From the IMG/VR virus record IMGVR_UViG_3300007735_000802: 64,000 nucleotides of DNA. One strand, written 5' to 3'. The first letter of the stretch is position 1, and each line of letters starts with the position of its first letter. Under the pieces are notes generated by a model that was not told where the DNA came from, ran no database searches, and saw nothing but the letters and a program-made list of their open reading frames with translations. The translations under genes were made by a program, and so were the position numbers. The DNA is from a virus. This document shows positions 20,508 through 39,408 of the stretch, piece after piece.

Positions 20508-20516
20508 TTGTTTTCC

Positions 20517-21429: not shown

Positions 21430-23412
21430 TTATACTATAGACCAGTTGGATCCATTACTTATCAAACCAATTGCCTGATATTGTTTATTTAAATAATATG
21501 CCGTAGCACCATCTATAGTCTGAGATGATGTTGTAAATATATTAATCGTTGATGCAGTTGTGCTTTTAACTGTATAAAGATTTGTATTTGATGCTGCCGT
21601 TGGCATGGTTAGTGTTAATCCAGCAGTTGCAATGTAAATATAATCAGTCGATGCAGCAGATCCTGCTGTTGTGTCTGTGCTTATACTTGATATTGATCGT
21701 GATATTCCAGATCCAGATGCTGATCCCCATGTGATGCCAGAACCAGTTGACATCAAAACTTGATTGTTTGTGCCTGTTGAACCACCAATATAAATTTTTG
21801 CAGAAGATCCAAATGTTATTCCATCTGCGACAAATAAACTTTCGCCTGATATTCCACCAACAACATGTAATTTAGCTGCTGGTGATGTGGTATTGATTCC
21901 AACATTTCCATTTAAATCAACAAGAAGTCTTGTATTTTGTGTCTCACCATATTCAGTTCCAGCAACACCAGTAATATTTGTATGGATCGACACACCAGTG
22001 TCATATCTCATCTTTACATAGTGACCAATATCAAATGTTGTTTTTTCAACTTTTGCGGCAGATTGCTTTGATGCTGCTACTGAATTTCCCCAAATTAATG
22101 CAGAAGATGATGTTGTTTCGGATACTGTTCCGTAAACACCAATATTCATTCTTTGTGCTGTGTTACCTATTGCTTGATAAGGAATACTTAATAAATTACC
22201 AATTATCGCTTGGTCAACGACATTTAATTTAGAAGCAGTTAATCCACTATTTACAAATACAACACCATTGAATGTTCCCCCAGATGCACTCAATCCGAAA
22301 TTTGCTGTCAATAATCCACTAAGTGTTGTACCAGCAGCACTCAATCCTCCATTTACTCTAACATCATTTGTAAATTCAAAGTTACCGACAGTTGTGTTTC
22401 CATCATTTGCTCTGATTGTTGATAATTTAACACCAGAACCAGAAGAAGTTGTATCAACTTTCATACCAAAATGAGTTGTTCCTGTGCCATTTGGCATCAA
22501 GTCAATTGACCCATTTGTAGAATTTCTTATAAATTCATCATTTGCTAAATTTACATTTGATGTAAACTTTCCACCAGTATTAAATGCTATATTTGTTGGT
22601 ACAAAACTTACAGCATATAAAGATCCAGTATTAACATTAACAGTAGTTGCAATTACATCTATAGATGATGGAATATTATCAGTATCTCCACCGGAAAGTC
22701 TAATATAAGCTGGGTCATCAATAAGTGCTGTAGTTTCTTGTGACTTAATTTCTAAATATTTTGAAGTAGCAGCGACAGATGGTGCAGAATGTAACATTCT
22801 AGTTCCGCTACTAGAAGTATCATTGAACACAATAGAATTTGTCATTGCTGAGAAAGTTATTCCGCGAGAAAACAATCCACCCGCAGAAGTGAACCCAGAA
22901 CTCATCACCTGAAGGACTGAGAATGTATTTCCTTCATTTGTTCGTGCAACATTTGTAATTGCACCAGTTGATCCATTTAGCGAGGAGACATAGTTGACGA
23001 ACGATACTGCACCCGTTGAACCATTAAATGATATTACATATTCTGTTGGTATTGCCCCAGTAGCACCAGTAGCACCAGTAGCACCAGTAGGGCCAACAGA
23101 ACCAGCAGGACCAGTAGCTCCTGTAATTCCTATAGGACCAGTAGGACCAGTAGGTCCAGTAGGTCCAGTAGGTCCAGTAGCACCAATACCACCAGAAATG
23201 CTATCCACATAAGTTTTAACAGCATATTGAGTGGGTATTTTTGTCTGACTATTTGAGGCTAAGGTTGCGCTGTTATCTATTTCAGCACCAACCCAAACGG
23301 CAGAAGAAGTAACACCAAGAAATAATTTATTATTGGCATAATCCCATGCTGGTTCAGCAAGGGTTAGTCCACTTGGTCCTGTAATTCCTCTTTTAAATTT
23401 TATTGTTGCCAT
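21430..23412 (-). CDS. Tail/whisker fibre protein with collagen-like segment
   Basis: [10 protein letters not shown]-terminus, [11 protein letters not shown], (GPT/GAT)n, [17 protein letters not shown]-terminal QTIDG...SNGSNW. Confidence 0.8.
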
Positions 23413-24617
23413 TAATATGTTCCGCCATCTATATTTAGATCACCTAAAACAATTAAATTTCCACTTATTGTTACATTGTTAGGTAATCCAATTATAATAT
23501 TTGGACAAGAGTTTGTTATTTCTATTTCATTTATAGTTCCAGTAATTCCTAAAATACCAGTGCATCCATTCAGCGATATTAAATAATCACCAACAGGACC
23601 AGTTGGACCTGTGATACCTTGAATACCCTGAGATCCGGTAGGACCAGTTGGACCTGTGATACCCTGAGATCCTGTAGGACCAGTTGGACCTGTGATACCT
23701 TGAATACCCTGAGATCCTGTAGGACCAGTTGGACCAGTTGGACCTGTTAGTTTATTATTTTGAACATATCGATATACTGCATCAGCAGTTGCGAGTGCAG
23801 AACTTCCAGACTGCACATCTCCAGTAACTGCTGTAATCTCTATTGTTGCTCCAACTTTTGATCCCAGTATTTGACTAGGAGAATTGCTCGTAATGTCGTC
23901 AACAAATGTATCAATAGTGTTAATTGATCTTACATGGCCATAAGCATCTATAGTAATTGTATTATTATTTGCAATTGCATATGTATTTCCACCCAAAGGA
24001 GAAGTAGCATGAGAAATAGTCAAAGCACCAGAACTTACAATAATAGGAGACACACCAGTATACTGAGGTCCAGTTGGACCAGTTGGACCAATAGAACCAG
24101 TTGGTCCAGTTGGACCTGTAATTCCTTGTATTCCTTGTGCTCCAGTTGGACCCGTTGATCCTGTTGGACCAGTTGGTCCAATAGAACCAGTTGGACCAGT
24201 TGGACCAGTTGGACCAGGAACTGTAGAATCTGCTCCAGTTGCTCCCGTTGGTCCAATAGAACCAGTTGGACCAGTTGGACCAGTTGGACCAATAGAACCA
24301 GTTGGTCCAGTTACACCCTGAATACCCTGTATGCCTTGTGGTCCTGACAAAGCAACACCAGGATAAGAAGCATATAAAACAGTAGAAGATGCTTGTGTAT
24401 TTGCTACTACATTTATTGATTGTGGTGCTGCTACTGTAAGTTGAACAGAACTTTGTTGATTTACTACAACATTGTTACTTGATTGTGATGTTGCAGTGAT
24501 TGTTGTTGCGGGACTATTCGAAGCAATTAAATTTGATAAATTACCAGAACCAGAAGATTGTACTTCTGTTCTTTCTATTATTCTAGTAATTACAAGTATT
24601 GCTTGGGTTATAGACAT
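23412..24617 (-). CDS. Collagen-like fibre protein
   Basis: Two long Gly-X-Y tracts dominated by GPT/GIQ; ends IDGGTY. Confidence 0.8.
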
Positions 24618-27136: not shown

Positions 27137-27144
27137 TATTTATA
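27137..27144 (-). promoter_or_regulatory. T4-type late promoter TATAAATA
   Basis: Exact consensus heading the fibre gene block. Confidence 0.7.
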
Positions 27145-27150
27145 ACAATT

Positions 27151-28374
27151 TTAGGTCTTTTGCTTTTTTCTCTCTTTGAACTTTTTCTTCTTTTGTTGGG
27201 CAGTTTCTAGTTGTTCTTTTTGTGCAACTTGCTGTTGTTGTATCATTTGTTGCTGTTGTTTTGAAATATTTTCCATTATTTGTCTATAATTATTGTAATT
27301 GTTTTGAACTCGTTCTATGTGTTCGGTGGGAATCTTTCCACTTTCTAATAATTTCTTACATGCCAAATAACCAATTTCTGGTCGTCCAGCAGCATGTGCT
27401 GTTGCTCCCAATTCATCAAGAGCAACAAAATTATAGATTATGTCGGGTACGAACAATATTTCACCATTTGGATATGGTAATTCTGCTGCTGTCTTTGCGA
27501 AGACATATGCTGCCGCTGGTTGATCAAATTTTTGTCGAAGAACTTGAGCAATGTGAACTAATGGTTCGGCACGAATTGGTCTGTAATTATATGCATCCAA
27601 GAAAGATGCCATGATTTCAGGCCATGGTCTATCCATCATTGCGCGACAAACTGCTACTCTGTACAATGAGTAATAAACCTCTTCTTGCCAACCACCCATC
27701 TCTGCTCTTTTCTTATAAGCATTCATAGATTTTTCCCATTGCTGAGAATCAAAATATGATTGTGCGAGATAGAATTGGTATCTTGTATTTGTTGGATCTT
27801 CTACAAGTGCCTTTTCTAATAGTTCTGCATCTCTTGTATACTTCTCAACAGCGGTTATTCCAACATTTCTAGCACCCAAAGTTCTTGCATTGATGTGATA
27901 ATTACCTTCAATCTTTACTAACTTTGGAGTTGGTTTGGAACATGCTGGATATTCGTGAAGAACTCCAACATATTTCCAATCAGAATCTAATCTAAAAATC
28001 TGAGTTCTCCACCAAGAAAATTCAGGTTTACCCATTCTGACAACATATCCATCTGCATCCATTTCTTGTGGAAGTTTAAGAGTACCTTCAACACAATCGT
28101 CAGCATCAATCATCCATGCATATTCCGCCTTGCCTTTTGCATGTTCCAACACTAGACTTCTGTTGTGACCAAAGTTCTTCCACTCATCTTGGTGTAGTTC
28201 TCCAGGAATTCCTTTTTCTTCGAAGAACTTCTTGATAATATCTTGAGTTCCATCTGTAGAACCAGTATCTGATATTACCCAATAATCAATTTGGTTGTAA
28301 ATAGAATTTAAGCACTCATGAATAATATGAGACTCATTCTTGACGATCATGCATAGTGTTAATTTTGGTTTCAT
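27151..28374 (-). CDS. GT2 glycosyltransferase with TPR repeats
   Basis: LCMIVKNE, DTGSTDGT, NFGHNR, IDADD, GVLHE; TPR RYQFYLAQSY. Confidence 0.9.
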   Translation of the reverse strand: MKPKLTLCMIVKNESHIIHECLNSIYNQIDYWVISDTGSTDGTQDIIKKFFEEKGIPGELHQDEWKNFGHNRSLVLEHAKGKAEYAWMIDADDCVEGTLKLPQEMDADGYVVRMGKPEFSWWRTQIFRLDSDWKYVGVLHEYPACSKPTPKLVKIEGNYHINARTLGARNVGITAVEKYTRDAELLEKALVEDPTNTRYQFYLAQSYFDSQQWEKSMNAYKKRAEMGGWQEEVYYSLYRVAVCRAMMDRPWPEIMASFLDAYNYRPIRAEPLVHIAQVLRQKFDQPAAAYVFAKTAAELPYPNGEILFVPDIIYNFVALDELGATAHAAGRPEIGYLACKKLLESGKIPTEHIERVQNNYNNYRQIMENISKQQQQMIQQQQVAQKEQLETAQQKKKKFKERKKQKT

Positions 28375-28375
28375 G

Positions 28376-29719
28376 TTAAACTCTTATATTGTCTGCTTTC
28401 GAAAAGTAATCATTCACCTTCTCTTCTATATAGTCCATTTGTTCATCTGTAATTACTGGACTTGTTCCTAAGAAGAAAGTATCTGTAGTTACCTTTGTAG
28501 CTACTGGAAAATCTTTCTTTGCATCTCCAGAATAAACATTACTATATGCTGGTTGAAGTAAGAGATTACCTCCAAAATAATTTCTGGTTTGTATCTTTTG
28601 ATCTTCTAGATACATAGTGAAATCATTTCTCTTCATAAAAACACCACTTCGAACTGTTAGTGGAAATGCAAACCATGATGGATCTGATTTCTCTGTTGCT
28701 TTTGGAAGATGAAAGATTTCTTCATATTTTGAAAATATAGAATATAGACGATTAAAGTTCTTCTTTCGAATCTCAATGATCTTGTCAAGTTTCTTGATCT
28801 GAACAAGACCAATTGCTGCTTGCATGTCTAATGGTTTTAAATTATATCCAATCTCTTCGTAGACATATTTGTGATCAAATATTTCCTCTGGAAATGCTGG
28901 CAACCAATTGCTAAATCTCTTTTTACACATTCCATTTCGCAAACACGCTGCACCTTTACCAGAGCAATAACATCCTCTTCCCCATTCGCGAAGACTCTTG
29001 ACAACTGTCTCTTGCTCTTCTGTATTACACGCAACAAACCCACCTTCACCCATTGTTATGTGATGTGCAGGATAAAAAGAGCAAGAAGCAAACTGACCAA
29101 AGGATCCTAGAAGTTTACCATCATATTTGCTACCAAGTGCATCACAACAATCTTCTAGTAGAACAAGATTGTATTTGTATACAATCTCCATGAGACGATC
29201 CATGTTTGGGGGATTACCAAGCACATGTGCAAACACCAATGCCTTAGCACCTTGTTTTGCTGCCTCTTCTACTTGATCTAGATTGAGATTTAGCGTATCA
29301 ATTTCAATATCGACAAATACTGGTTCGAATCCATTTTGTAAAATAGGATTTACCGTTGTAGGAAAACCAGCAACAGGAGTTATAATCTTTGTTCCTTTTG
29401 GAAAATTATACAATCTCTTGCTAGTTAACGCAGAGATCATCAAAAGATTTGCACTCGAACCGCTGTTTGTTAATGCTCCATATTGCTTACCCAGTTTTTC
29501 TTTAAACTGCCGCTCAAATCGAATACCATTTTCACCAAGTCCAAACCAACCCTCAAGTAAACAATCTACTGCTGCAATATATTCTTCAGAAGAAACATAA
29601 GAACCAGCATATTGAACCCAATCTTTTCCAGGTATCCACTGCTTACTAGTTTCATCAATTACTTGTTCTATAAGTGAATTTATTTTTTGTATAGTTAAAG
29701 TTTTATTCAAATTAATCAT
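28376..29719 (-). CDS. rfbH: CDP-4-keto-6-deoxyglucose 3-dehydrase (E1, RfbH/DdhC)
   Basis: NSGSSANL, EDCCDALG, SFYPAHHITMGEGG (His in place of the PLP Lys), WGRGCYC...C [2Fe-2S] Cys cluster, DHKY. Confidence 0.88.
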   Translation of the reverse strand: MINLNKTLTIQKINSLIEQVIDETSKQWIPGKDWVQYAGSYVSSEEYIAAVDCLLEGWFGLGENGIRFERQFKEKLGKQYGALTNSGSSANLLMISALTSKRLYNFPKGTKIITPVAGFPTTVNPILQNGFEPVFVDIEIDTLNLNLDQVEEAAKQGAKALVFAHVLGNPPNMDRLMEIVYKYNLVLLEDCCDALGSKYDGKLLGSFGQFASCSFYPAHHITMGEGGFVACNTEEQETVVKSLREWGRGCYCSGKGAACLRNGMCKKRFSNWLPAFPEEIFDHKYVYEEIGYNLKPLDMQAAIGLVQIKKLDKIIEIRKKNFNRLYSIFSKYEEIFHLPKATEKSDPSWFAFPLTVRSGVFMKRNDFTMYLEDQKIQTRNYFGGNLLLQPAYSNVYSGDAKKDFPVATKVTTDTFFLGTSPVITDEQMDYIEEKVNDYFSKADNIRV

Positions 29720-30548
29720 TATATGCCTTTAGTATAGTATCAACTGCTTGATAAACTGTAGTTTTAGGTCTATATCCTAAAGCAAGTAACCTACTGTTGT
29801 CAAGATACATATTTTCAATTTGAACAATTTTGTGAAACTCTGGTGTGTTTATGTTGACTATATTGCTATTAGAATTTAATTTTTCTTTGCAATAATATAT
29901 TATATCCTTAATTTTAACAGGTTCTGAGTTTGATATATTTGTAATACTGTTGACAGGTCCATTGGTTATACATGTCATGATTGCTTCACAACAATCATCC
30001 ACGAACATGTAATCACGAATTGCTGATCCTCCATCATACAATTTAACTTCCTCATTATTTTTAAGAAGGTTGATCATATATTGTAAAGCATTTTTCTTTT
30101 TTGAAACTTTCTTATCAGTTGGACCAATTATATTAGTAAGACGAAGAATTCTGTAATTCAGTCCAAAAGTTTCGCAATAAGATACTAACATTTTTTCAGC
30201 AGCAAATTTTGTTATTGAATAAAAACCAGTGGGATTACATAATGAAGACTCATTTGCTGGAAGATCATTTGTTTTTCCATATACAAACCAAGAACTTATA
30301 AAATTAAAAACTATTTGTTCTTTTTCTTTTCTACACTCTTCCAAGACATCAATTAATTTTAATAAATTTGTATTGATATCGAGTTTTGGATCACTGTGTA
30401 TATTATAATTATCTACTGTACTTATTAGATAAAGTATATTACTTGATAATGGTTTATTGGATAATTTTGATATAGACATAGATTCATTTTTATACATTTC
30501 ATTAAATCTAGATCCAATAAATCCAGTGCTTCCATATATCGATATCAT
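29712..30548 (-). CDS. NAD-dependent sugar epimerase/reductase (SDR)
   Basis: GSTGFIG, SSWFVYG, YSITK. Confidence 0.88.
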   Translation of the reverse strand: MISIYGSTGFIGSRFNEMYKNESMSISKLSNKPLSSNILYLISTVDNYNIHSDPKLDINTNLLKLIDVLEECRKEKEQIVFNFISSWFVYGKTNDLPANESSLCNPTGFYSITKFAAEKMLVSYCETFGLNYRILRLTNIIGPTDKKVSKKKNALQYMINLLKNNEEVKLYDGGSAIRDYMFVDDCCEAIMTCITNGPVNSITNISNSEPVKIKDIIYYCKEKLNSNSNIVNINTPEFHKIVQIENMYLDNSRLLALGYRPKTTVYQAVDTILKAYND

Positions 30549-30973
30549 CTATAGTTCTCCACATAATCTGAACATATTCCCATAACCTTTAAATCTGGAA
30601 CTACATCTCTATCCAAACAAACAGTTATTCCATTCTTTATATAAACACCAGGAAAACACCAAGGTATGCCTTTACTTGTAATTGTAAACTTGTCAGACTC
30701 ATGCCAAAAATAATTTAAAAAATTTACAACTTCCGTTTCTGCTGCTTCTAAATTTTTAAGATGAACCCATAATTTTTCTTTTCTATTAAATAACCAATAT
30801 TTGTCTATCTTGTAATAGGGTTCATCGTGACCTAAGTAAAAATTACTATCTTTAACCCAAAGGTCAATTTCAACATCATATCCTAATTCTATAACTTTAT
30901 TGATACGAGATGGATTATTTTCAAATTGTGGATTAGGTCCATTTAAATTTCCTCTATGCGATATCAGTTTCAT
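30545..30973 (-). CDS. GDPD/PLC-like phosphodiesterase-fold protein
   Basis: ISHRGN, DVEID, LGHD, HLKN, GICSDY. Confidence 0.7.
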   Translation of the reverse strand: MKLISHRGNLNGPNPQFENNPSRINKVIELGYDVEIDLWVKDSNFYLGHDEPYYKIDKYWLFNRKEKLWVHLKNLEAAETEVVNFLNYFWHESDKFTITSKGIPWCFPGVYIKNGITVCLDRDVVPDLKVMGICSDYVENYR

Positions 30974-31715
30974 AAATATACTTTCTGGTTGGAGTAGAAT
31001 CTACTTCAATGTCACTTTTTACAACTTGGTACAGAATATTATCATTAAAGTTTATATTAATATTTAAATAATCTGTAAGATAATATTTTAACATTCCTTC
31101 AGCATGTGAAATATTAGCATTGCGTTCGAGATACATTTTGTCAAAATGATCATACATTGATAAATAATTAATCATCGATACTTCATCGCCGTATGCCAAG
31201 TGATCACAAAATCCAGATTTAATATCTGCATTTGGTTGATAATATACACTAAAAAAATTATATGGTATAGTTATTCCAGAATCAACAGAATTTATATTTA
31301 CATCAATATAGTTAAGATCAAATCTACTTCTTACAATTATATCATAATAATTTTTTGGAATTAAATCAATAGACTGCTTTACTAAGTACCATTGATATCT
31401 TATTCTATTTGAAGCATTTGTTCCTTGTTCAATTGCAAATTTATTTGTTTTGTAAATATCATATGGTCTATCTACGGGAATAGTTGTTGGTATTGTTTTT
31501 TTATGAATATTCCAATTTAAAATTTTAATTCCTGCACATGAATTATTTTTAAATATATCAATTGGAATTTTTGTTTCATTATTTGCATCTACAGTATCCC
31601 AAGCACAATAATAAATATCAGCATTTTGAAATTTTTCAAATAATTTTAAGTGAAGTTGATGTCCATACTTTATAAAAGATCTTACAAATCCGGTAAAAAT
31701 AATAGCAGTTTTCAT
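30954..31715 (-). CDS. Putative glycosyltransferase-like protein of polysaccharide loci
   Basis: AIIFTGFVR...YDIIVRSRFDL...DHLAYG...HAE. Confidence 0.55.
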   Translation of the reverse strand: MKTAIIFTGFVRSFIKYGHQLHLKLFEKFQNADIYYCAWDTVDANNETKIPIDIFKNNSCAGIKILNWNIHKKTIPTTIPVDRPYDIYKTNKFAIEQGTNASNRIRYQWYLVKQSIDLIPKNYYDIIVRSRFDLNYIDVNINSVDSGITIPYNFFSVYYQPNADIKSGFCDHLAYGDEVSMINYLSMYDHFDKMYLERNANISHAEGMLKYYLTDYLNININFNDNILYQVVKSDIEVDSTPTRKYIYETDIA

Positions 31716-32359
31716 TTTAATATACAGTATCCAAAACCATAATCTTGTGGACACAAATTTTCAACAACATGCCACTTATCTGTATTCAATGCCTTTATAA
31801 ATGAGTTTGGCCCAGGATGTGCCGTAACATCATGAAATCCCACAACTCCTCCCTTTCTCAGCAATTTTGTATATTCCCAATCATATAAAACTTGATTAAT
31901 ACTATGAATTGCATCTATATGAATAAAATCTAAGTAGGTTACACCCAAAGATGATAAATAATCCACCACAGTAGTATAATCTCTAGAATTTGCTTGTATG
32001 AAGTAAAAATTTTTCGAAGGTGAGGCCTCCTTTGGATCTAGATCTACCCCCAAAAATATTCCATTAGATGGAATATTTTTAACAATAGTTGTTGTTGAAG
32101 AAGAATCACCGTTTCTACAAACACCTATTTCTAAAAAATATCTAGGACTAGGCACACAAGCATTAATTGCTTCTTGCAATGCACTATGGTTTGATAAACT
32201 AAATTCATCATTTGCTACTGGTCTTCTAAGCATTTCTTCGAATGGAGAACCATATCCCAAAGGATCACATATATCATCCTTTTCAGAATTGGTTCTTATA
32301 TCTTTAACTAAGTCTTGTTTCCACTTTGTTGGTAAGTCTTGCCTCTGTAACATTTCCAT
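31712..32359 (-). CDS. Class I SAM methyltransferase (Methyltransf_24-like)
   Basis: FLEIGV, DFIHIDAIHS, GGVVGFHD. Confidence 0.8.
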   Translation of the reverse strand: MEMLQRQDLPTKWKQDLVKDIRTNSEKDDICDPLGYGSPFEEMLRRPVANDEFSLSNHSALQEAINACVPSPRYFLEIGVCRNGDSSSTTTIVKNIPSNGIFLGVDLDPKEASPSKNFYFIQANSRDYTTVVDYLSSLGVTYLDFIHIDAIHSINQVLYDWEYTKLLRKGGVVGFHDVTAHPGPNSFIKALNTDKWHVVENLCPQDYGFGYCILK

Positions 32360-32993
32360 CTTCCTCATATGAAATATCATAACCTAGAGTTATCAATCTT
32401 TTTGTAATTTCAACTACGGCATCATGATCGCTGTGAGCATTAGATTCAAAGGATATAAATTCTGGCAACATTTCTGGTGAATCTGAATAATATTTCAACA
32501 CACTATCTAAAATTTTACAATCATATCCTTCAGTATCAATTTTTAATTGTTTTACTTTTCCTATGTTATAGGTATCAATCAAATTTTTATATGTATAGCA
32601 TGGTATTGTTTTTTTTGTAACAAGACCCATAGAAAGCAAATCTACCGTTTTTAAAGATTTTCTGTCTGCATGATGATGCCATGTCCAAGGACATGGAAAA
32701 TATCCTGTATGAAAATCGTGTGGTTTTCCGACAGAATTACAACCCTTCATCCAAATTCCAAGATTAAATTTGTCAATAATTTCTTCTGTTACATAATAAA
32801 CATCAAGACCATTACTGTCTTCATCAGCAACAACTGCTCCATTTATTTTAGTGACATTTTTTTTATTTGGAAGTTTATTTAAATATTCTAATATTGGTTC
32901 AACGGACAATCCGTATTCAGTATCATCTGCTTTTTCAATTAAAGTATCAAAAAAAGCAGTTCCAATTTCAATAAAATCATAATCTTGTTTCAT
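32304..32993 (-). CDS. FkbM-family methyltransferase
   Basis: FIEIG, SVEP, LKIDTEGYD, FE. Confidence 0.8.
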   Translation of the reverse strand: MKQDYDFIEIGTAFFDTLIEKADDTEYGLSVEPILEYLNKLPNKKNVTKINGAVVADEDSNGLDVYYVTEEIIDKFNLGIWMKGCNSVGKPHDFHTGYFPCPWTWHHHADRKSLKTVDLLSMGLVTKKTIPCYTYKNLIDTYNIGKVKQLKIDTEGYDCKILDSVLKYYSDSPEMLPEFISFESNAHSDHDAVVEITKRLITLGYDISYEEDGNVTEARLTNKVETRLS

Positions 32994-34183
32994 TCGACTT
33001 TACCCCATGTTTGAATTGCTTTGTGATATTCTTCACCATATGCTTTGTCAATTGCCTGTCTCATTGCCTTAGCACCAGACAATGTCCCATTTGGATGTCC
33101 ATGCACCGCACCACCAGCATTTCCAAGATAATCATTTCCCACTAAGTTAGTGATCTTGTCAACAAGACCAGGATGCAATCCGCAACTCAATGCTGGGACT
33201 GTGTTTCCCTCTCTGAGAATTCTAATGCATTCCAAAGTTTCTGCCTCGTCGTGATTGCTATAACCACCAACCATTCCTGTTTGGATTGTGTCAACGCCCA
33301 TAAGTGTTGCCAACTGGCACATCACAGTCCAACTGATGCTAAAACGATGCTGTGCGTCTGTGACTACCTTTGCTCCGCTGCTCTGGTAGTGAATGTAGAT
33401 GGGCAGATCCAACTGACGAATGCTGTTGTATGCACCGTAACCACTCCAGACATTGATATGCACACCATTTCCCCCTAATGAGTGAACCTTGGTAACGCGA
33501 TCAACTAGAATATGAGGATCACAGTTAATTGTGTGACAGAATACAACTTTTTTGGATTGAGTCGCCATGTAATTTGAAATTAGTTCTACTCGCTTTTCTA
33601 GTGGGCAGAAATTAGGATTAGACATGATTTCATCTTCCTTGATAAAATCAACACCACCATCAACTAACTCCTTTACCATATCAAGAAGAGTGTCCGGACT
33701 AATTCCAATTTTTGGTTTAATTATAGCACCAAATAATGGTTTATTATACTGCCCAGTAAACTCACGCATTCCAGATATACCAAACTTTGGACCTTTAAAT
33801 TGAGATGTTACGCTTTGTGGCAATTCTAACTTTATTAAACGACAACTTTTTATTAAATCAATATCTACATGACCACCCATAACTTGACAAAGAAGGTGAC
33901 TTATTCCGTCAGTGTTCCAGTCTGTGTTAATTATAGGAAAAGCAATTTTTACTTCTCCATTTTTCTTTTTAAGAAGTTGTTTTTCACTCCCTAAAATTAA
34001 ACAAGAATGATTTTTAAAAAGATCTTCAGTTTCCCATCGATTTCTTACATTTGGATTTCCCACACTTTGTCCGATTGCTATATTCCAAGCAGCATCTCTT
34101 AAACTTTTATTAGATTTAATTTGATATGTAGCAATGAAATAATTGTTAAGATTCACATCGTTTTCAGTTACAAATAAGTTCAT
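32990..34183 (-). CDS. RuBisCO-like protein (form IV RLP)
   Basis: GPKFGISG, IIKPKIG, GGVDFIKEDE, PALSCGLHPG, GGAVHGHPNG, GAKAMRQA. Confidence 0.92.
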   Translation of the reverse strand: MNLFVTENDVNLNNYFIATYQIKSNKSLRDAAWNIAIGQSVGNPNVRNRWETEDLFKNHSCLILGSEKQLLKKKNGEVKIAFPIINTDWNTDGISHLLCQVMGGHVDIDLIKSCRLIKLELPQSVTSQFKGPKFGISGMREFTGQYNKPLFGAIIKPKIGISPDTLLDMVKELVDGGVDFIKEDEIMSNPNFCPLEKRVELISNYMATQSKKVVFCHTINCDPHILVDRVTKVHSLGGNGVHINVWSGYGAYNSIRQLDLPIYIHYQSSGAKVVTDAQHRFSISWTVMCQLATLMGVDTIQTGMVGGYSNHDEAETLECIRILREGNTVPALSCGLHPGLVDKITNLVGNDYLGNAGGAVHGHPNGTLSGAKAMRQAIDKAYGEEYHKAIQTWGKVE

Positions 34184-34184
34184 A

Positions 34185-34514
34185 TTATTTCTCCAAAATT
34201 TCTATCTTATCTCCAGGAACAGAAGGAGTCTTTACTACAAGAACTCTACAATCTTCTAAAAAAATAGGATCTGATATTTCCATTTTGTTAAGAACAAAAA
34301 TATCTCCAGGATTAATCTCTGTGTTATGTATAGTCATTTTACCATCTAGAAGAACATTATATTCGTCCGTCTTAGCATGATAATGTTTTGGCCAGTATTC
34401 TCCTTTTTTGTGTGTCATTACTGCTACTTCAAAATTTTTTGTCTTTAAGACAGATGGTTCAAAGTCTCCAATAAACCATCCACCTTTCATCGTATTTAAT
34501 TTTATAATTTTCAT
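34185..34514 (-). CDS. Cupin-fold protein
   Basis: GWFIGDFEPS, HYH...EYN metal motif, VKTPS. Confidence 0.8.
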   Translation of the reverse strand: MKIIKLNTMKGGWFIGDFEPSVLKTKNFEVAVMTHKKGEYWPKHYHAKTDEYNVLLDGKMTIHNTEINPGDIFVLNKMEISDPIFLEDCRVLVVKTPSVPGDKIEILEK

Positions 34515-35224
34515 AATTTTCTCAAATATTCTCTTAGATCATCAGGTGTTCCAACTGAATTATGCATTATATCTGGAATATGGAAAATGCCAACTCTTTT
34601 GTTGTGTTTAATCATATAATTATATGTTGGTCCAATATAATATTCTCCATTAATAGATTTGTCTTTTTCTTTGATCATTTCTTCTGCACTGTTGACAAAA
34701 TCGTTTCCATGTTTCCAATAATGTATACCATTCAAAGAGATATTGCTAATGATTTCTTTTTCTTTTACCTCTACGACTCTTCCATATCTGTCTAATCGGG
34801 CATAACTATTTTTTGGTGTATTTGCATAATAAGTAACAATTATTCCATCATGCACATTATTCTGAATTGATTTTATAAAAAATTCACTATCCCACCACAT
34901 TATCTGATCACAATTTGCTATAATTAATGGATCATTATTATTGATATACTTTTTCATCAATAGTGCGGTAGATGCTGGACCTTCTGTTAAATAATCTATT
35001 TCTAGTATAACAGAATTATCATTATGTTTTGCAAGCAAACTTTTTAAGTCTTCACTAAAATTACTTTTGCGAATAACGAATAGATAACGACCTTTGATTC
35101 CTAAAGAATCAATAGCATGAAGAATCATTTCTTTGTTTTCTATTTTGATAAGAGGTTTTGGATCTACAAATCCTTCGTCACTAAATCGTTTACCAAGACC
35201 AGCAAGAGGTATTAATATATTCAT
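34511..35224 (-). CDS. Sugar-phosphate nucleotidyltransferase (NTP_transferase family)
   Basis: ILIPLAGLGKRF...PKPLI, TEGPA, NCDQ, EKE, NGEYY, GTPDDL. Confidence 0.88.
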   Translation of the reverse strand: MNILIPLAGLGKRFSDEGFVDPKPLIKIENKEMILHAIDSLGIKGRYLFVIRKSNFSEDLKSLLAKHNDNSVILEIDYLTEGPASTALLMKKYINNNDPLIIANCDQIMWWDSEFFIKSIQNNVHDGIIVTYYANTPKNSYARLDRYGRVVEVKEKEIISNISLNGIHYWKHGNDFVNSAEEMIKEKDKSINGEYYIGPTYNYMIKHNKRVGIFHIPDIMHNSVGTPDDLREYLRKL

Positions 35225-36141
35225 AATATAACCTTATTGATTATCTGCTGAATTAAGTTATTTTCATACTCAAATTCAGGACTCCAATTGTACATAGTAT
35301 GTATAATTGGCAATCCAGTATCAAAAACAAAATTCATGTTGTGTCTTTCACGGTATTTGTTTATTGCAACTTCATCAAAATTATCAACAAATAATGAACG
35401 ATCTGTTATGATATTTTTCCAATTTGTTGTTTTTATTCCAAAAATATTATTACAAAAATAAGGATATTTACTATTATCTTTTATAATAGTTCTTTCTTTT
35501 GGAGACATTACTTCTTTAAAATTTTGAATTATATAATCATTGATTCTTTTTTGACAATCAAATCTAACTCTAACTGGATGAATACCTTTATAATAATGAT
35601 TAAAATTTTTTACTTTAGAATAAAATCTATCTGAATCCCACTCTGGCAAATCTTCGTTTAGAGATCTGTAATCAGCACCATGATCTGCTAGTTTGGTTTC
35701 ATTAAACATCAAATAAAGTTCTTTTTTTATTGAAATAGCGTGATTTTGCAAAAATAATTCAACTGTGGGAATTCCAGAGGAAATAGCACCAGTTGTAAGT
35801 AAATCATTTTCTTCTAACGATTCGATGTTGTGAAAAAACTTATCCCAAGAATCGGTAGTCATAAAACAATCTTCATCGTGTTTTACTGAATATTCGTGGT
35901 TTTGATTTAAAGCAAATACTACTTTCATTAAGTAGTTTAGCATATGACTGCGATCAAAATAATAAAATGATACTCTATCACCCAGATAAGATTCTATGGT
36001 ATTTTTACTAGAAGTATCGATACCATTAGATAAAACATAAAAATGAAAATTTTTATATCTACATTTAGATAATTCATGGGCATGTGCTAATATAAAATTT
36101 TCTCTGCGAGCACCAAGACAAAATATACCAATTTTTTTCAT
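35221..36141 (-). CDS. Putative glycosyltransferase (GT-A-like)
   Basis: KHDED DxD-like motif; position within the glyco island. Confidence 0.5.
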   Translation of the reverse strand: MKKIGIFCLGARRENFILAHAHELSKCRYKNFHFYVLSNGIDTSSKNTIESYLGDRVSFYYFDRSHMLNYLMKVVFALNQNHEYSVKHDEDCFMTTDSWDKFFHNIESLEENDLLTTGAISSGIPTVELFLQNHAISIKKELYLMFNETKLADHGADYRSLNEDLPEWDSDRFYSKVKNFNHYYKGIHPVRVRFDCQKRINDYIIQNFKEVMSPKERTIIKDNSKYPYFCNNIFGIKTTNWKNIITDRSLFVDNFDEVAINKYRERHNMNFVFDTGLPIIHTMYNWSPEFEYENNLIQQIINKVIL

Positions 36142-36146
36142 AATAA

Positions 36147-36827
36147 TTATTCCTGTATTTTCCAATTTTCGTATCCACTATCTTTGTCTGGATCAATGTC
36201 TGGGTGTGGATTCCAATCATAAACATCTTTGTCTTTTAAATATCTCACAACTGAATATGGATTAAGTTTATAATTCCATTTACCCTGACATCTAAGTCCC
36301 CATTCAACATCTTCTCCCTGACCCCAACACAAATTATTGTTCTGTGGATTTTCCAACATAAATTTTTTACTGCCACACCAATATGTGCCGTTGATATACA
36401 TTTCTCTTATTTTTGTTGGATCATTATACTTAACAAAGTGTAAAGGTCTGTGTTGTGTAAACCAATCCCTATGTCTTAATCCATTTTTCATTCTAACTGG
36501 ATTCATACAAACATCCCAATCGTATCCAAACTTGTCATATCCTATAACCCAGTTTTCGCAAAAAGCAACATAGTCATGACTCAAGCAAATATGTTCGTAT
36601 TTTGCATTTTGAACTATAAGATTTTTCTTAACGGTTACCCAACCAGGTCTTATGGTTTCTTCAAAAACTATATTTTTAATATTTTTATTTTCTAATTTCT
36701 TTATTGTTTTGATATATGGACCAATCAATATAATTTCAAATTTTTTAATATTTTTTTGATTTACTATTGATTTAATAATTTTTTCAATATAAAGATCATT
36801 AGAATAACATATTCCAAATGTCCACAT
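36147..36827 (-). CDS. Putative GT2-like glycosyltransferase
   Basis: FEIILIG, KKNL...AKYE..CLSHDY, GEDVEW. Confidence 0.65.
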   Translation of the reverse strand: MWTFGICYSNDLYIEKIIKSIVNQKNIKKFEIILIGPYIKTIKKLENKNIKNIVFEETIRPGWVTVKKNLIVQNAKYEHICLSHDYVAFCENWVIGYDKFGYDWDVCMNPVRMKNGLRHRDWFTQHRPLHFVKYNDPTKIREMYINGTYWCGSKKFMLENPQNNNLCWGQGEDVEWGLRCQGKWNYKLNPYSVVRYLKDKDVYDWNPHPDIDPDKDSGYENWKIQE

Positions 36828-36829
36828 AG

Positions 36830-37459
36830 TTAACCTTTATTTTCCCATCCACACATACCATTTTCATAATTAATTCCTGCTTTACTAATACCAACATAAA
36901 TTTTATGATTTTCTATTTCGTGAATAGATGATGTGCAATAATTGTCTAATTTACAAAAATTGTAATCATTACTGTTATTTCTATAGTAATCTATTAAATA
37001 TGCATGTTCAGTTTCTCTAATTGATGGATCAAGTTTTGCCTTTTCACACAAATTTTTCCAAGGTTGAATAAACTCCAATGATTTTTTAGTATTATTGAAA
37101 AACATAAAACATGCATGAGGAGTGCCAATATCATAATACCATTTTCCAATATCGTATTCTTTATTCCTCATAAAGAATCCAATGTCACATGTTAATTCTT
37201 TCAATTCATCTACTGGTTTTATGAAAGAACAATCTATGTCTATCCATATAACGGCATCATTTAATTCTTTTATCTTTTGTTCAATAAAAGTTGGTTTATG
37301 AAAATTTAATGTTTTATAATTTGGATTATCAATTTGAACATTGTCAATACTATATTCGTATCCAAGAGAATCTAACTGTTTTTTTAAATTTAAATAACAA
37401 TTTTCATAATATTTTGATTTTTCTGGATTACAATCATACCAAAAAGAAATAAATTTCAT
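36830..37459 (-). CDS. Nucleotide-diphospho-sugar transferase-like glycosyltransferase
   Basis: KPTFI...VIWIDID. Confidence 0.65.
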   Translation of the reverse strand: MKFISFWYDCNPEKSKYYENCYLNLKKQLDSLGYEYSIDNVQIDNPNYKTLNFHKPTFIEQKIKELNDAVIWIDIDCSFIKPVDELKELTCDIGFFMRNKEYDIGKWYYDIGTPHACFMFFNNTKKSLEFIQPWKNLCEKAKLDPSIRETEHAYLIDYYRNNSNDYNFCKLDNYCTSSIHEIENHKIYVGISKAGINYENGMCGWENKG

Positions 37460-38118
37460 AAATTCCCCACTAGGTTATATTTAACTGCTTCTTCATTCAT
37501 TCCCATTTCACGCAAAGATTTTTCTTTAGAAACTCCATCCGCAATACCCATTGTTATCATTGGTTGCATTGTGTTTGGTATTGAAGTACCAGGCCATATT
37601 GCATAGTTTATTGGCAACATTCCTATTTTTAGTTTATGTACATACTCTGGTAAAACTTGAAACATGAGTATTTCATGATCAAAGACTTTACTTGTATTTG
37701 ATCTTAAATTTTCTTCACACTTTAAAATCCAATAATTTAAAAATTCAATCACTATGTCTTTGTATGTAAAATAAATCGGAGATGCTTTTGGAAGTGTGAC
37801 ATTGACATTTGGTGGTAGGCCCTGATACGCAAAAGCAATATCACAATTATTTTCTATTTCATCAAACACTTTCAATTCAGCATGAATTAATGAATCTACA
37901 TCCAACCAAACAAATGGTTTTTTCTTTTCAAGCAAAACATCTAATATAAACTTTGGTTTTGCCAAACAATTTAATCTGTACTCTCCTCTAGATGGAAGTT
38001 CTCTCACATCATGTGGAATATTATTTTCGTTGCAGTTGATACGCAACCTACGCGAATGATCGCTGTAGTAGGTTCTTCCATCAATGTCTGCATAAAATGA
38101 TACAATCTCAGTTTTCAT
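37456..38118 (-). CDS. Nucleotide-diphospho-sugar transferase-like glycosyltransferase
   Basis: KPKFI...FVWLDVD...FDHE; related to the neighbouring gene. Confidence 0.7.
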   Translation of the reverse strand: MKTEIVSFYADIDGRTYYSDHSRRLRINCNENNIPHDVRELPSRGEYRLNCLAKPKFILDVLLEKKKPFVWLDVDSLIHAELKVFDEIENNCDIAFAYQGLPPNVNVTLPKASPIYFTYKDIVIEFLNYWILKCEENLRSNTSKVFDHEILMFQVLPEYVHKLKIGMLPINYAIWPGTSIPNTMQPMITMGIADGVSKEKSLREMGMNEEAVKYNLVGNL

Positions 38119-38950
38119 TGATTAACTCAAACAATATATCGTCAGCATTCTTGAGTTCTTTAACACGATTAAAGTTATCTCTTACTGCTTCTAGTTTACT
38201 TTCATATAACTCTTTTGTCAACATTTTTGGATCAAAATCTGGAGTCAATTCTATAATTCCATCTTTATTGAAGATATCTCCAATATCAGGAGTTCCCCAG
38301 TATATTGGAATAGTTCCAGTTGCGAAACAGTCTGTCAACTTTTCTGTATAATATGTTTCATACTTATCATTCTCTATTGTGATTGAAAACATGTACGGAT
38401 TTAAAAGTTCTTCTTTGTTTGGCCATGGATTTCCTTGATCACCAACTCTATTTGATCCTGCTGCTCCACCAAATAAATCAATTTGATTTTTAAATTTTTC
38501 TGCAACTTGATGTCTTATATGATGTCCAAATGTAACTTTTTTCCCAGAAGCAATCATTGAAACTATCTTGGTTTTATCAAAAATCTGATGATTTTTAACC
38601 CAAGGCAAATTACTGCCAGCTGGACAATATTTGATATTAGGATGCTTTCCAACCCACTGTTTATCAGAAACAAAAACAATATCATAAGAATCTGATATAT
38701 TTTTTAAATTATCTTCCCAAACATTTATTGGAACATACCATGAATGAAAAATAGCACGGGATTCACAGATCCATGCTATTTTTCTTTCCCCTAATTTTTT
38801 CTGATACATCATCCCAGGGATTATATGTGAATCAACAAATACCTTTACTGGATGATCTTTTAAGACCCAATTAAAATTTTTTGGTTTATAATCCGAGCAC
38901 GAAGAATATTGATATAAAAATCCACCACCTATTAACTGCATTTCCTTCAT
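38108..38950 (-). CDS. GT10 (alpha-1,3-fucosyltransferase-like) glycosyltransferase
   Basis: YMFSITIEN...YYTEKLTDCFATGTIPIYWG. Confidence 0.85.
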   Translation of the reverse strand: MKEMQLIGGGFLYQYSSCSDYKPKNFNWVLKDHPVKVFVDSHIIPGMMYQKKLGERKIAWICESRAIFHSWYVPINVWEDNLKNISDSYDIVFVSDKQWVGKHPNIKYCPAGSNLPWVKNHQIFDKTKIVSMIASGKKVTFGHHIRHQVAEKFKNQIDLFGGAAGSNRVGDQGNPWPNKEELLNPYMFSITIENDKYETYYTEKLTDCFATGTIPIYWGTPDIGDIFNKDGIIELTPDFDPKMLTKELYESKLEAVRDNFNRVKELKNADDILFELINEN

Positions 38951-38976: not shown

Positions 38977-39375
38977 TTACTTTCCTATGTGGTATTTAGG
39001 AACCAGAGTCCATTCTTGTTTGTCTTTGAATGGAATTATCTTCAATCTTGCAAGAGATAATTGTGGTTCTTTATACTTGTTTGGATCTAACGGAGTGATC
39101 AAACCCCATTCTGTCAAAAGTTTAACTATTGTATTTCTTCGTCCAAGATCATCAGTTGACATATCAGATTCTAAACCATCAAGTACAAACATTTCTTTAA
39201 AATGCATGATGGCATATCTACCTCTCTTGTGTAGTATGTGACAAGACTGATATAACTTTTTTTCTGTTTTTGAAGAAACTCCGATTCTAGTCAGGGTTTC
39301 TTTAACTTTAAGAAAGTCTTCTTCTGAATTTAATTTTACTTCTACACCCAATCCCTCAAAAATATCTTCTGTCAT
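38977..39375 (-). CDS. regA: Translational repressor RegA
   Basis: DFLKVKETLTRIG, LYQSCHILHKRGRY, HFKE, RRNTI, LVPKY. Confidence 0.96.
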   Translation of the reverse strand: MTEDIFEGLGVEVKLNSEEDFLKVKETLTRIGVSSKTEKKLYQSCHILHKRGRYAIMHFKEMFVLDGLESDMSTDDLGRRNTIVKLLTEWGLITPLDPNKYKEPQLSLARLKIIPFKDKQEWTLVPKYHIGK

Positions 39376-39400: not shown

Positions 39401-39408
39401 TATTTATA
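39401..39408 (-). promoter_or_regulatory. T4-type late promoter TATAAATA upstream of regA and the glyco island
   Basis: Exact consensus in the gp62-regA spacer. Confidence 0.6.

Follow-up and report, generated by a model that had tools for sequence, protein, structure and literature searches.

A RuBisCO-like protein linked to a nucleotidyltransferase in phage and cellular glycan loci: a possible biosynthetic role for the RuBisCO fold

Why would a virus carry a full-length relative of the RuBisCO large subunit in a glycosyltransferase island? The question is raised by a 64,000-nucleotide stretch of viral DNA (IMG/VR record IMGVR_UViG_3300007735_000802), here called the window. An initial annotation described a full-length RuBisCO-like protein (RLP) in a tight run with a nucleotidyltransferase (NT), a cupin and two methyltransferases, and both the ORF coordinates and the Pfam matches bear this description out. 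The run consists of the NT, the cupin, the RLP, the two methyltransferases, a protein with a predicted GT-A fold and a miniature GDPD-like protein, then SDR, DegT and GT2 genes, all in the same direction. From the NT to the second methyltransferase, neighbours in the ORF list either share a few bases or are separated by 1 nt. The features of the locus are:

39401..39408, minus strand: T4 late-promoter-like TATAAATA, upstream of regA and the island
35221..38950, minus strand: upstream island genes, four ORFs without a Pfam match (314, 226, 209 and 220 aa) and a GT10 gene
38108-38950, minus strand: the GT10 fucosyltransferase-like gene, in the upstream part of the island
34511..35224, minus strand: predicted nucleotidyltransferase (NT) of the RmlA/4evw-like sugar-phosphate type (237 aa)
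34185..34514, minus strand: small cupin, predicted metal type (109 aa)
32990..34183, minus strand: RuBisCO-like protein (RLP), assigned to the "Form IV-like" clade (397 aa, full-length)
32304..32993, minus strand: FkbM-family SAM methyltransferase (229 aa; Pfam Methyltransf_21, E=3e-5)
31712..32380, minus strand: Methyltransf_24 (TylF-like) SAM methyltransferase (222 aa; Pfam E=6e-7)
30954..31754, minus strand: DUF7796/WavE-like protein with predicted GT-A fold (p266; 266 aa), which may be the transferase that uses the product
30545..30973, minus strand: putative miniature GDPD-like phosphodiesterase (p142; 142 aa)
29712..30548, minus strand: SDR epimerase/dehydratase-family gene of the island, non-core (278 aa; Pfam Epimerase, 2.4e-31)
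28376..29719, minus strand: DegT/DnrJ/EryC1-family PLP enzyme of the island, non-core (447 aa; Pfam 2.4e-80)
27151..28374, minus strand: GT2 glycosyltransferase with a helical-repeat C-terminal part, the last gene of the island (407 aa; Pfam Glycos_transf_2, 2.2e-14)
27137-27144: second copy of TATAAATA, directly past the island end

T4-type regA, gp62/44, gp45 and gp46 border the island, so the original call of a phage is correct, and the carrier is T4-like. Within the island the cassette sits amid GT2, GT10, DegT, SDR and methyltransferase genes, and collagen-like fibre genes with G-P-T repeats abut the island. The surroundings of the cassette change: the upstream genes vary from locus to locus, and homologues of the SDR and DegT genes occur in only 9 (by tblastn) and 5 of 80 phage loci, respectively. 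Copies of the T4 late-promoter-like motif bracket the island; seven of its eight matches in the window lie on the coding strand, which is a hint only, as the number of matches overall does not exceed chance.

The RLP matches the Pfam RuBisCO_large domain (PF00016) with an E-value of 9.7e-38 and 130 bits (cut-off 30); its N-terminal domain scores 17.5 bits, under the cut-off of 20.7, and alignments to PDB entries cover residues 19-382. By these matches we place it in the RuBisCO large-subunit superfamily (PF00016/PF02788). Could it be an auxiliary enzyme that fixes carbon or salvages nucleotides (the AMP pathway) and so boosts host carbon metabolism? The domain itself speaks for this, as does the best NCBIfam score, which is to type III RuBisCO (rubisco_III); however, that score is 195 bits, far under the 497-bit cut-off, and no e2b2/PF01008 partner is found. 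The active site argues in the same direction. Residues were mapped with a HMMER alignment to the P. horikoshii RuBisCO (2cwx) and an alignment of 153 sequences. K175, K177, K201, D203, E204, H294, S379, G381 and G403/G404 are retained, while E60 is replaced by G, T65 by N, N123 by G, T173 by I, R295 by Y, H327 by Q, K334 by Y and G380 by C. The calls of the initial annotation for K175, K177, K201, D203 and E204 (present) and for E60, N123, R295, H327 and K334 (replaced) are all correct under this mapping, and the motifs IIKPKIG, KEDE, SCG, GGAVHGHP, AIGQS, MGGH, IQTG and VGGY occur in the translation. The protein keeps the carbamate-Mg site (K201, D203, E204), the K175/K177 pair and one phosphate cradle (S379, G381, G403, G404); the other phosphate site is gone, and so are the residues that handle CO2. 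The catalytic set of bona fide RuBisCOs (forms I-III) is incomplete at E60, N123, R295, H327 and K334, and four of these positions (all but H327) are replaced invariantly throughout the clade described below. We predict that the RLP is non-carboxylating, and a role in carbon fixation is scarcely credible.

To which family does the RLP belong? It scores below every NCBIfam equivalog cut-off: 139 and 172 bits against the MtnW models TIGR03332 and NF007095 (cut-offs 513.6 and 409; a true MtnW, P0220, reaches 652 and 641), and 152.7 bits against the OiaX/OiaC model NF042437 (cut-off 700). On these scores it is classed as neither MtnW, OiaX nor form III. The phylogeny called for by the initial annotation (FastTree, midpoint root, in which deep placement is not robust) puts it outside the MtnW clade, in a clade of its own with support 99. 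The 65 leaves of this clade include Beckwithbacteria L092 and 18 IMG/VR loci, and their active-site signature is uniform. We therefore assign the window RLP, by its sequence, to the "Form IV-like" phage/Beckwithbacteria clade, which is defined by phylogeny only. The publication on that clade (Jaffe, Castelle, Dupont & Banfield 2019, PMC6389311) notes carriers among Myoviridae and divergent key residues, and assigns the proteins neither a function nor a gene neighborhood. Compared with that report, the clade is much wider, extending to SAR11, Legionella, Actinobacteria and DPANN, and its members are linked to an NT and in some cases fused to it.

Relatives of the RLP number more than 3000 in metagenomes, with 180 IMG/VR contigs, and the cellular carriers include SAR11, Legionella, Nonomuraea, CPR and DPANN. 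Across phage, bacterial and archaeal members, K156, K158, K182, D184, E185, Y308, S333, G335 and G357/358 are invariant, and a glycine occupies the RuBisCO N123 position throughout, where MtnW has a catalytic lysine. The H294 position is H or F and the H327 position H or Q, a variation that counts against the explanation we favor below. Among INPHARED phages there was no match to the RLP and no near-DNA match to the window. The RLP carriers are uncultured; relatives of the NT and of HAD-NT proteins do occur in cultured cyanophages.

Is the RLP tied to a sugar-nucleotide gene, as the initial annotation held? For 61 phage and 31 cellular loci we counted the genes lying no more than 3 kb from the RLP. 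The NT is present in 60 and 30 of them, respectively (90/92), p142 in 50 and 16, and the cupin in 46 and 10; DUF7796-like genes accompany 41 of the 61 phage RLPs. Gene order within the cassette is reshuffled between loci while the linkage is kept. Moreover, at least 28 protein clusters (658-672 aa) are RLP-NT fusions; one of them, P0284, is found on 24 contigs, and translation of the DNA confirmed the fused frame. The fusion loci also carry the cupin, a GDPD-like gene (hhalign 96%), a second NT and WavE, and their neighbors, namely flippase, KpsC/S-like and phosphonate genes, mark them as loci for surface polysaccharides. The proposed link to an NT is thus upheld, as is the suggestion that the GDPD-fold gene at 30545 is part of the module. 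Neighborhood and fusion indicate functional coupling, not the direction of a pathway. That the module is carried by a virus, which had been singled out, holds for this phage and is not distinctive: the cassette is not phage-specific, since surface-glycan loci of cells contain it too, in Legionella, in DPANN archaea and in a Pelagibacter whose genome is complete. A literature search returned no relevant publication linking an RLP to a nucleotidyltransferase/cupin, LicD, a nucleotide sugar, a capsule, pelagimyophage or IV-GOS.

The near-universal partner is predicted to be an RmlA/GlmU-like (PF00483) sugar-phosphate nucleotidyltransferase. The window protein alone gives a weak Pfam match (NTP_transf_3) and a sub-cut-off NCBIfam match to rmlA_long (E=4e-14), while the family profile (A2) finds PDB 4evw at 3.5e-34 and then ManC, HddC and RmlA at about 1e-9. 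The motifs LAGLGKRF (the G-x-G-x-R NTP loop) and VKEKE (the E-K sugar-phosphate motif) are present, and G9, G11, R13, E155 and K156 are invariant in the family. The closest solved relative, 4evw, was deposited just as a "nucleoside-diphosphate-sugar pyrophosphorylase," and the wider relatives include inositol-1-phosphate and phosphonate cytidylyltransferases.

The cupin has weak Pfam matches (Cupin_7/Cupin_2), its profile finds small cupins in the PDB at 3e-6 to 1e-4, and H44, H46 and E51 (H-x-H-x4-E, motif 1) are invariant in 23 homologues, which suggests a metal-type member of the cupin superfamily. As it is missing from about one quarter of the phage and two thirds of the cellular loci, we regard it as accessory, and the order RLP, cupin, NT given in the initial annotation is a guess. 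One small protein, c16, was considered as a hidden cupin of the cupin-less loci and rejected; it is a ferredoxin. An RLP beside a small cupin has a single precedent known to us, the Rhodospirillum rubrum RLP with its cupin methylsulfurylase, which raises the possibility of salvage as in the MTA-isoprenoid shunt: methylthio- or 5-deoxy-pentulose phosphates arising from the many SAM and radical-SAM enzymes of these islands would be recycled by the RLP together with the cupin. SAM methyltransferase and radical-SAM genes are indeed frequent neighbors, and a Nonomuraea locus has AdoHcyase-like and nucleoside-kinase-like genes. However, MtnA (PF01008), which makes the ribulose-1-phosphate substrate, was found in neither of two complete RLP phage genomes, and is missing from three of five carrier genomes (the complete Pelagibacter and two others) and far from the RLP in the remaining two. 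The remark that no methionine-salvage genes lie in the window stands for the stretch from 27 to 43.7 kb, with its 20 ORFs. In addition, the RLP does not fall in the MtnW clade and scores below the MtnW cut-offs, the cupin is dispensable, and the universal partner is an NT, even fused, for which salvage has no need. We consider salvage improbable.

The small protein p142 has no Pfam or NCBIfam match. It carries the motifs H-R, E-N, E-x-D and H-D, with H6, R7, E18, N19, E35, D37, H49, H71 and K73 invariant; its family profile matches the GDPD 7e0v in the PDB (E=1.7e-4), and its AF2 model (pLDDT 95.7, few helices) retrieves mostly GDPDs among the top Foldseek matches (TMq 0.5-0.66), rank 1 being a chain of a multidomain glucanase. 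The model and motifs point to a GDPD-like protein with the H-R/E-x-D/H-D residues of that TIM barrel, but a strand carries H71-x-K73 where GDPD has E-x-K, so that the third acidic metal ligand is absent, and its 142 aa compare with about 220-250 aa for a full-size GDPD barrel. A phosphodiesterase within a biosynthetic route is itself a point against the explanation we favor. An apparent p142-RLP fusion (P0156) was discounted, the RLP there being split into two ORFs on the contig. Kinship of p142 with p266 as paralogues was also rejected: BLAST is negative, and their joint cluster reflects single linkage through a few long ORFs.

The window p266 has no Pfam match, and 13 of 37 members of its family match DUF7796. 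Its AF2 model (pLDDT 77.5) finds GT6 transferases in Foldseek at about 1e-7, with a VIA Z of 12.1 against Mnn9 (rmsd 3.3, 194 aligned) and 11.8 against BoGT6a, and we predict a GT-A fold. G22, D46, Y137, R144 and D146 are invariant, a canonical DxD is not evident, and the model matches nucleotidyltransferases that share this fold almost as well as it does glycosyltransferases. The p250 family profile gave no match to the PDB by sequence. FkbM-type methyltransferases occur in 32 of 80 phage loci, and Methyltransf_24 homologues in 30-35 of the 80, mostly adjoining the RLP.

What, then, does the cassette make? With an RLP that is not MtnW, near-invariant linkage to an NT, RLP-NT fusions and p142 in the module, the cassette is best read as biosynthetic and nucleotide-activating, in agreement with the core of the initial interpretation; its enzyme order, and its "branched-chain" sugar, are not supported. 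The most likely role of the RLP is enolisation or isomerisation feeding a nucleotide-activated sugar or ketose-phosphate donor, and on balance we think it probable that a conserved cassette, with the RLP as its catalytic core, makes an unusual donor of this kind (sugar, or ketose/polyol phosphate) for glycan synthesis. The RLP would enolise a mono-phosphorylated keto-sugar from central metabolism and then isomerise or rearrange it; the NT would attach an NMP to what the RLP makes or to its substrate; the small metal cupin, if present, might add an aldose-ketose or epimer step. Methyltransferases may decorate the sugar unit, and GT-A-fold DUF7796/WavE-like proteins may transfer it. It is tempting to suppose that p142 acts on the phosphodiester of a vicinal-diol phosphate moiety, in transfer, trimming or proofreading.

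In a variant of this explanation with other chemistry, the donor is a ketose or polyol phosphate activated in the CDP manner (compare CDP-ribitol, CDP-glycerol and CDP-6-fructose). Here the RLP product would keep its primary phosphate, the NT would make NDP-X, X-phosphate would be transferred as a phosphodiester, and the GDPD-like enzyme would make or trim the diester. Such a route needs neither kinase nor mutase; the module has neither, so that a classical sugar-1-phosphate NT has no evident source of anomeric phosphate, a point against the explanation we favor. To our knowledge, every characterised RLP substrate has a primary phosphate adjacent to a carbonyl, p142 retains those residues with which GDPDs hold a glycerol-phosphate-like diester, and the NT relatives include the cytidylyltransferases mentioned above. 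Furthermore, a LicD-family phosphotransferase adjoins the RLP-NT pair in four Legionella/Tatlockia species, all without p142, and in Legionella it may serve as the transferase instead. In contrast, LicD occurs in none of the 80 phage loci, the commonest associated transferases have the GT-A glycosyltransferase fold, and the nearest characterised NT relatives are sugar-1-phosphate enzymes. We hold this variant to be unlikely, if well worth keeping in mind. The links to LicD (phospho-alcohol transfer) and to GT-A proteins (glycosyl transfer) imply differing donor chemistries, which weighs against our favored explanation as well.

Where would the activated unit end up? T4-like phages glycosylate their DNA, and phage glycosyltransferase islands can reportedly serve DNA hypermodification, according to a 2023 preprint, so the unit could be placed on phage bases instead of proteins or polysaccharides. 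We judge this very improbable: in cells the same cassette is accompanied by flippase, KpsC/S-like, ArnT-like and LicD genes, the window island abuts collagen-like fibre genes, and the 20 scanned ORFs (27-43.7 kb) show no base-hydroxymethylase or DNA-GT signature. The phage island probably glycosylates a surface structure, and the adjoining G-P-T collagen-like fibre proteins are candidate targets.

RLPs are otherwise known to us only from salvage and catabolic routes. The stronger claim, that this clade is the first biosynthetic RuBisCO-fold enzyme, using enediolate chemistry to turn a common keto-sugar phosphate into a precursor for an undescribed nucleotide-activated sugar displayed on the surfaces of SAR11, Legionella, CPR/DPANN and many aquatic phages, seems to us nearly, though not quite, an even call. 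One option is that a ketose-1-phosphate is closed to an aldose-1-phosphate; another is that the RLP acts on an NDP-linked ketose, the NMP lying in the space freed by the replacement of E60 and N123 by glycine. If true, the RuBisCO fold would gain a new kind of job, the synthesis of activated glycan precursors, and cells (SAR11) and viruses that rank among the most abundant in water would carry an undescribed sugar or sugar-phosphate decoration, with consequences for phage-host recognition and for annotation. Genes of this clade are routinely labeled "ribulose-bisphosphate carboxylase large chain," a name that could be mistaken for evidence of viral carbon fixation. With just two to four proteins, in some cases a single fusion, the cassette is small enough for direct testing in vitro.

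How does the cassette compare with known systems? The published "Form IV-like" RLPs (PMC6389311) belong to the same clade as the window RLP, which groups with IMG/VR phages and Beckwithbacteria L092.

MtnW/YkrW (2,3-diketo-5-methylthiopentyl-1-phosphate enolase, form IV) enolises without CO2. It resembles the RLP in predicted fold, K175, K201, D203, E204 and one phosphate site, but the two fall in separate clades and the RLP has glycine for the catalytic lysine. OiaC/OiaX, the 3-oxo-isoapionate-4-phosphate decarboxylase and transcarboxylase RLPs, reportedly act in D-apiose catabolism (work attributed to Carter et al. in 2018). We know of no other RLP precedent in "branched sugar" metabolism (the substrate is a branched sugar-acid monophosphate), and of no NT partner for it; unlike the role proposed here it is catabolic, and it falls in another clade (P0233).

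The R. rubrum RLP (5-methylthio-D-ribulose-1-phosphate 1,3-isomerase) is, like the window RLP, encoded near a small cupin, and by analogy its isomerisation of a ketose monophosphate through successive proton transfers offers a plausible chemical model. Its pathway requires MtnP and MtnA and has no NT, whereas the RLP cassette occurs in two phage and three of five carrier genomes that lack MtnA. Parallels in layout are the GmhA-HldE-GmhB-HddC and RmlA-D cassettes, which share with the RLP cassette an isomerase and an RmlA-like NT (HddC and RmlA being PDB relatives of the window NT), followed by tailoring by cupin, SDR, PLP-enzyme and methyltransferase and by glycosyltransferases. In contrast to these GDP-heptose and dTDP-sugar cassettes, the core of the RLP cassette is without kinase, mutase or 4,6-dehydratase, and it places a RuBisCO-fold enzyme in the isomerase slot together with a putative phosphodiesterase-fold protein.

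Around the RuBisCO-like protein (RLP) the genes run on the minus strand throughout and, by their ORF calls, are closely packed. In 5'-to-3' reading order they are as follows.

Genes of the island and its upstream border
38977-39375, minus: regA, first in the order
38108-38950, minus: GT10-like gene
35221-38118, minus: four ORFs without a family match
34511-35224, minus: RmlA/4evw-like nucleotidyltransferase (NT, 237 aa)
34185-34514, minus: cupin
32990-34183, minus: RLP (397 aa), with the RuBisCO_large match
32304-32993, minus: FkbM-type methyltransferase
31712-32380, minus: Methyltransf_24 methyltransferase
30954-31754, minus: p266, a DUF7796/WavE-like protein
30545-30973, minus: p142, a miniature GDPD-like phosphodiesterase
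29712-30548, minus: SDR
28376-29719, minus: DegT-family PLP enzyme
27151-28374, minus: GT2, last of the island

T4-type gp62/gp44, gp45 and gp46 lie upstream of the island. T4-like cyanophages and Pelagibacter phage HTVC008M have clamp loaders with 53-55% identity to the one encoded here; the window therefore belongs to a T4-like aquatic myovirus. The metagenomes that contain its DNA are viral, estuary and sediment samples. The motif TATAAATA occurs on the coding strand at 27137-27144 and 39401-39408 (minus), in the gaps after the last island gene and before regA; of its eight occurrences across the window, seven are on that strand, and their total number is at chance level.

The RuBisCO_large match is unambiguous (E=9.7e-38), and PDB alignments cover nearly all of the protein, including the N-terminal domain. 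All sequence strings quoted in the initial annotation are present in the translation, and its by-eye reading of the active site holds in a RuBisCO-numbered mapping. K175, K177, K201, D203 and E204 are kept as claimed, along with H294, S379, G381 and G403/G404. The five residues said to be lost are all replaced (E60 by G, N123 by G, R295 by Y, H327 by Q, K334 by Y), as are T65 (by N), T173 (by I) and G380 (by C). We take this pattern to mean that the carbamate-Mg enolisation site is intact with one phosphate cradle, and that the protein has lost the other phosphate site along with the residues handling CO2 and the carboxylated intermediate. A role in carbon fixation is excluded by this active site: judged from its residues, the RLP is a non-carboxylating protein that retains an intact enolisation site.

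The protein falls far below the cut-offs of all NCBIfam equivalogs (type III: 195 bits versus 497; MtnW models: 139-172 versus 409-514; OiaX: 153 versus 700). In a FastTree phylogeny of 153 sequences (representatives of a 1.84-billion-protein library plus 18 phage and 24 cellular loci), it lies within a 65-leaf clade with support 99, in which phage and cellular sequences are interleaved. Outside this clade lie a true MtnW (P0220, 652 bits), a form III enzyme and a protein resembling OiaX; the RLP does not group with MtnW. Full-length members share a nearly uniform active-site word, G-N-G-I-K-K-K-D-E-[H/F]-[F/Y]-S-[H/Q]-Y-S-C-G-G-G, the exception being the basal and more divergent P0144. C334 of the RLP, at the glycine that follows S379 in RuBisCO, is Cys in 36 of 37 members; Y308, in place of the loop-6 K334, is found in 37/37, and Q39, R198, H242, N244 and Q267 are likewise invariant. 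One might speculate that the small invariant residues at E60 and N123, beside the retained phosphate site, make room for a nucleotide.

Gene neighbourhoods bear out the proposed linkage: the RLP is nearly always coupled to a nucleotidyltransferase.

Partners within 3 kb of the RLP, counted with family HMMs only in loci whose flanks each reach 3 kb or more
NT: phage loci 60/61, genome loci 30/31
GDPD-like p142: phage loci 50/61, genome loci 16/31
Cupin: phage loci 46/61, genome loci 10/31
DUF7796-like: phage loci 41/61, genome loci 8/31

The linkage is kept despite repeated reshuffling, with orders such as NT-cupin-RLP-MT-p142, p142-NT-RLP and p142-RLP-MT-NT-cupin, among others. It extends to fusion. 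A 667 amino acid protein consists of a full RLP and a full NT, and a targeted search gave 28 such clusters (658-672 aa, identity down to 65%), one of them on 24 contigs; DNA translation confirmed the reading at four loci. Downstream of the fusion at those loci come genes for a cupin, a 204 amino acid GDPD-like protein (hhalign 96%) and another NT, and a gene of WavE-like type. Such fusions are strong evidence that RLP and NT share one metabolite. Because flippase, KpsC/S-like, ArnT-like and phosphonate-biosynthesis genes adjoin the fusion, these are marked as surface-polysaccharide loci, and the setting of the cassette is that of surface glycans. At the fusion loci L133 and L135 the phosphonate genes are those for PEP mutase, a split phosphonopyruvate decarboxylase, Fe-ADH and a PntC-like NT, and sulfatase/EptA-like transferases lie alongside, which suggests heavily decorated surface polysaccharides.

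An apparent p142-RLP fusion (P0156) was discounted, the RLP being split on its contig. Other RuBisCO-fold fusions lie outside the window. P0183, a metagenomic protein of 583 aa, has a TIR domain at its N-terminus and then a complete RLP of a different clade, 30% identical to the window RLP; it may represent a defence-type architecture. P0162 and P0168 (approximately 730-740 aa) join an eIF2B-like domain (ribose-1,5-bisphosphate isomerase family) to a form III-type RuBisCO, and would place two consecutive AMP-pathway enzymes in one chain.

A role of the RLP in methionine or 5'-deoxyadenosine salvage is unlikely. Complete genomes without the MtnA/e2b2 family are those of two RLP-carrying phages (274 and 187 kb) and one Pelagibacter; two more carriers lack it as well, and in carriers that have it, it is far from the RLP. 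Salvage would also have no use for an NT fusion.

What, then, might the partners contribute? The NT profile matches 4evw in the PDB (3.5e-34), an uncharacterised Vibrio cholerae "NDP-sugar pyrophosphorylase," followed by ManC, HddC and RmlA, and its G-x-G-x-R and E-K motifs are invariant. Some close relatives carry a fused second NT, others a beta-phosphoglucomutase-like HAD domain; the latter type also occurs in cultured cyanophages. The NT-HAD fusions (P0311-P0393; Synechococcus phage S-CAM9, L132 5341-6726) are approximately 455 amino acids long, 45-55% identical to the cassette NT and widespread in marine metagenomes, and their cultured cyanophage carriers have no RLP; they probably activate sugars by a route of their own, in islands of the same type. 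The p142 protein has the GDPD catalytic motifs H-R, E-N, E-x-D and H-D, with a histidine at the third acidic metal ligand; its model (pLDDT 95.7) is a stripped-down barrel whose best structural matches are mostly GDPDs. The cupin keeps its H-x-H...E metal site. The p266 protein, which has a GT-A fold, belongs to a viral DUF7796/WavE-like family, as does the 242 amino acid gene product following the RLP in cupin-less phage loci. In Legionella, a LicD-family phosphotransferase adjoins RLP-NT, and p142 is absent from these loci.

The cassette core has no kinase, mutase or dehydratase. We infer that the RLP would isomerise or rearrange a mono-phosphorylated keto-sugar drawn from central metabolism, that the NT would activate the product or, acting first, the substrate, and that the remaining genes would tailor and transfer it. 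The data lean neither towards nor against the branched-chain sugar suggested in the initial annotation. The donor may be a glycosidic NDP-sugar, as the GT-A partners and the sugar-1-P type of the NT relatives suggest. Alternatively, a ketose or polyol phosphate activated in CDP form may serve as donor and be passed on as a phosphodiester; this reading draws on the LicD gene of Legionella, on the cassette's GDPD-like protein and, to our knowledge, on the primary phosphate in the substrates of all known RLPs.

One complete Pelagibacter chromosome carries the cassette, as do many single-cell genomes of SAR11; further carriers include three species of Legionella, a MAG of Tatlockia, Azospirillum, Nonomuraea, Elusimicrobia, Francisellaceae, CPR bacteria and DPANN archaea. 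The cassette is therefore cellular as well as viral; it is real, and more than a phage curiosity. These cellular loci do not fit an activated unit for DNA hypermodification, a reading that we consider improbable for the phage itself. In Nonomuraea rosea (L119, 5090-14713), p142, RLP, cupin, NT and GT2 precede two further genes, one for an AdoHcy-hydrolase-like NAD protein and one for a deoxynucleoside-kinase-like protein, possibly a nucleoside link; with integrase and transposase genes at its borders, the locus looks like a mobile island.

In the window phage, a virion fibre is a plausible target of the island's sugar, because a pair of large genes (660 and 401 aa; 21430-24617, minus) with long collagen-like G-P-T / G-x-T triplet runs lie directly downstream; their products are candidate glycosylated virion fibres. 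Two paralogous Ser/Thr-rich proteins of 298-300 amino acids follow (19611-21419).

The RLP family has more than 3000 metagenome relatives and occurs on 180 IMG/VR contigs. We found no publication on the gene context of the clade in the searchable literature. With one sequence from Beckwithbacteria and myovirus contigs from IMG/VR among its members, it is identified as the "Form IV-like" group of Jaffe et al. 2019 (PMC6389311), who described it from about 80 phage sequences and left its function open; the carriage of this RLP by phages is already published.
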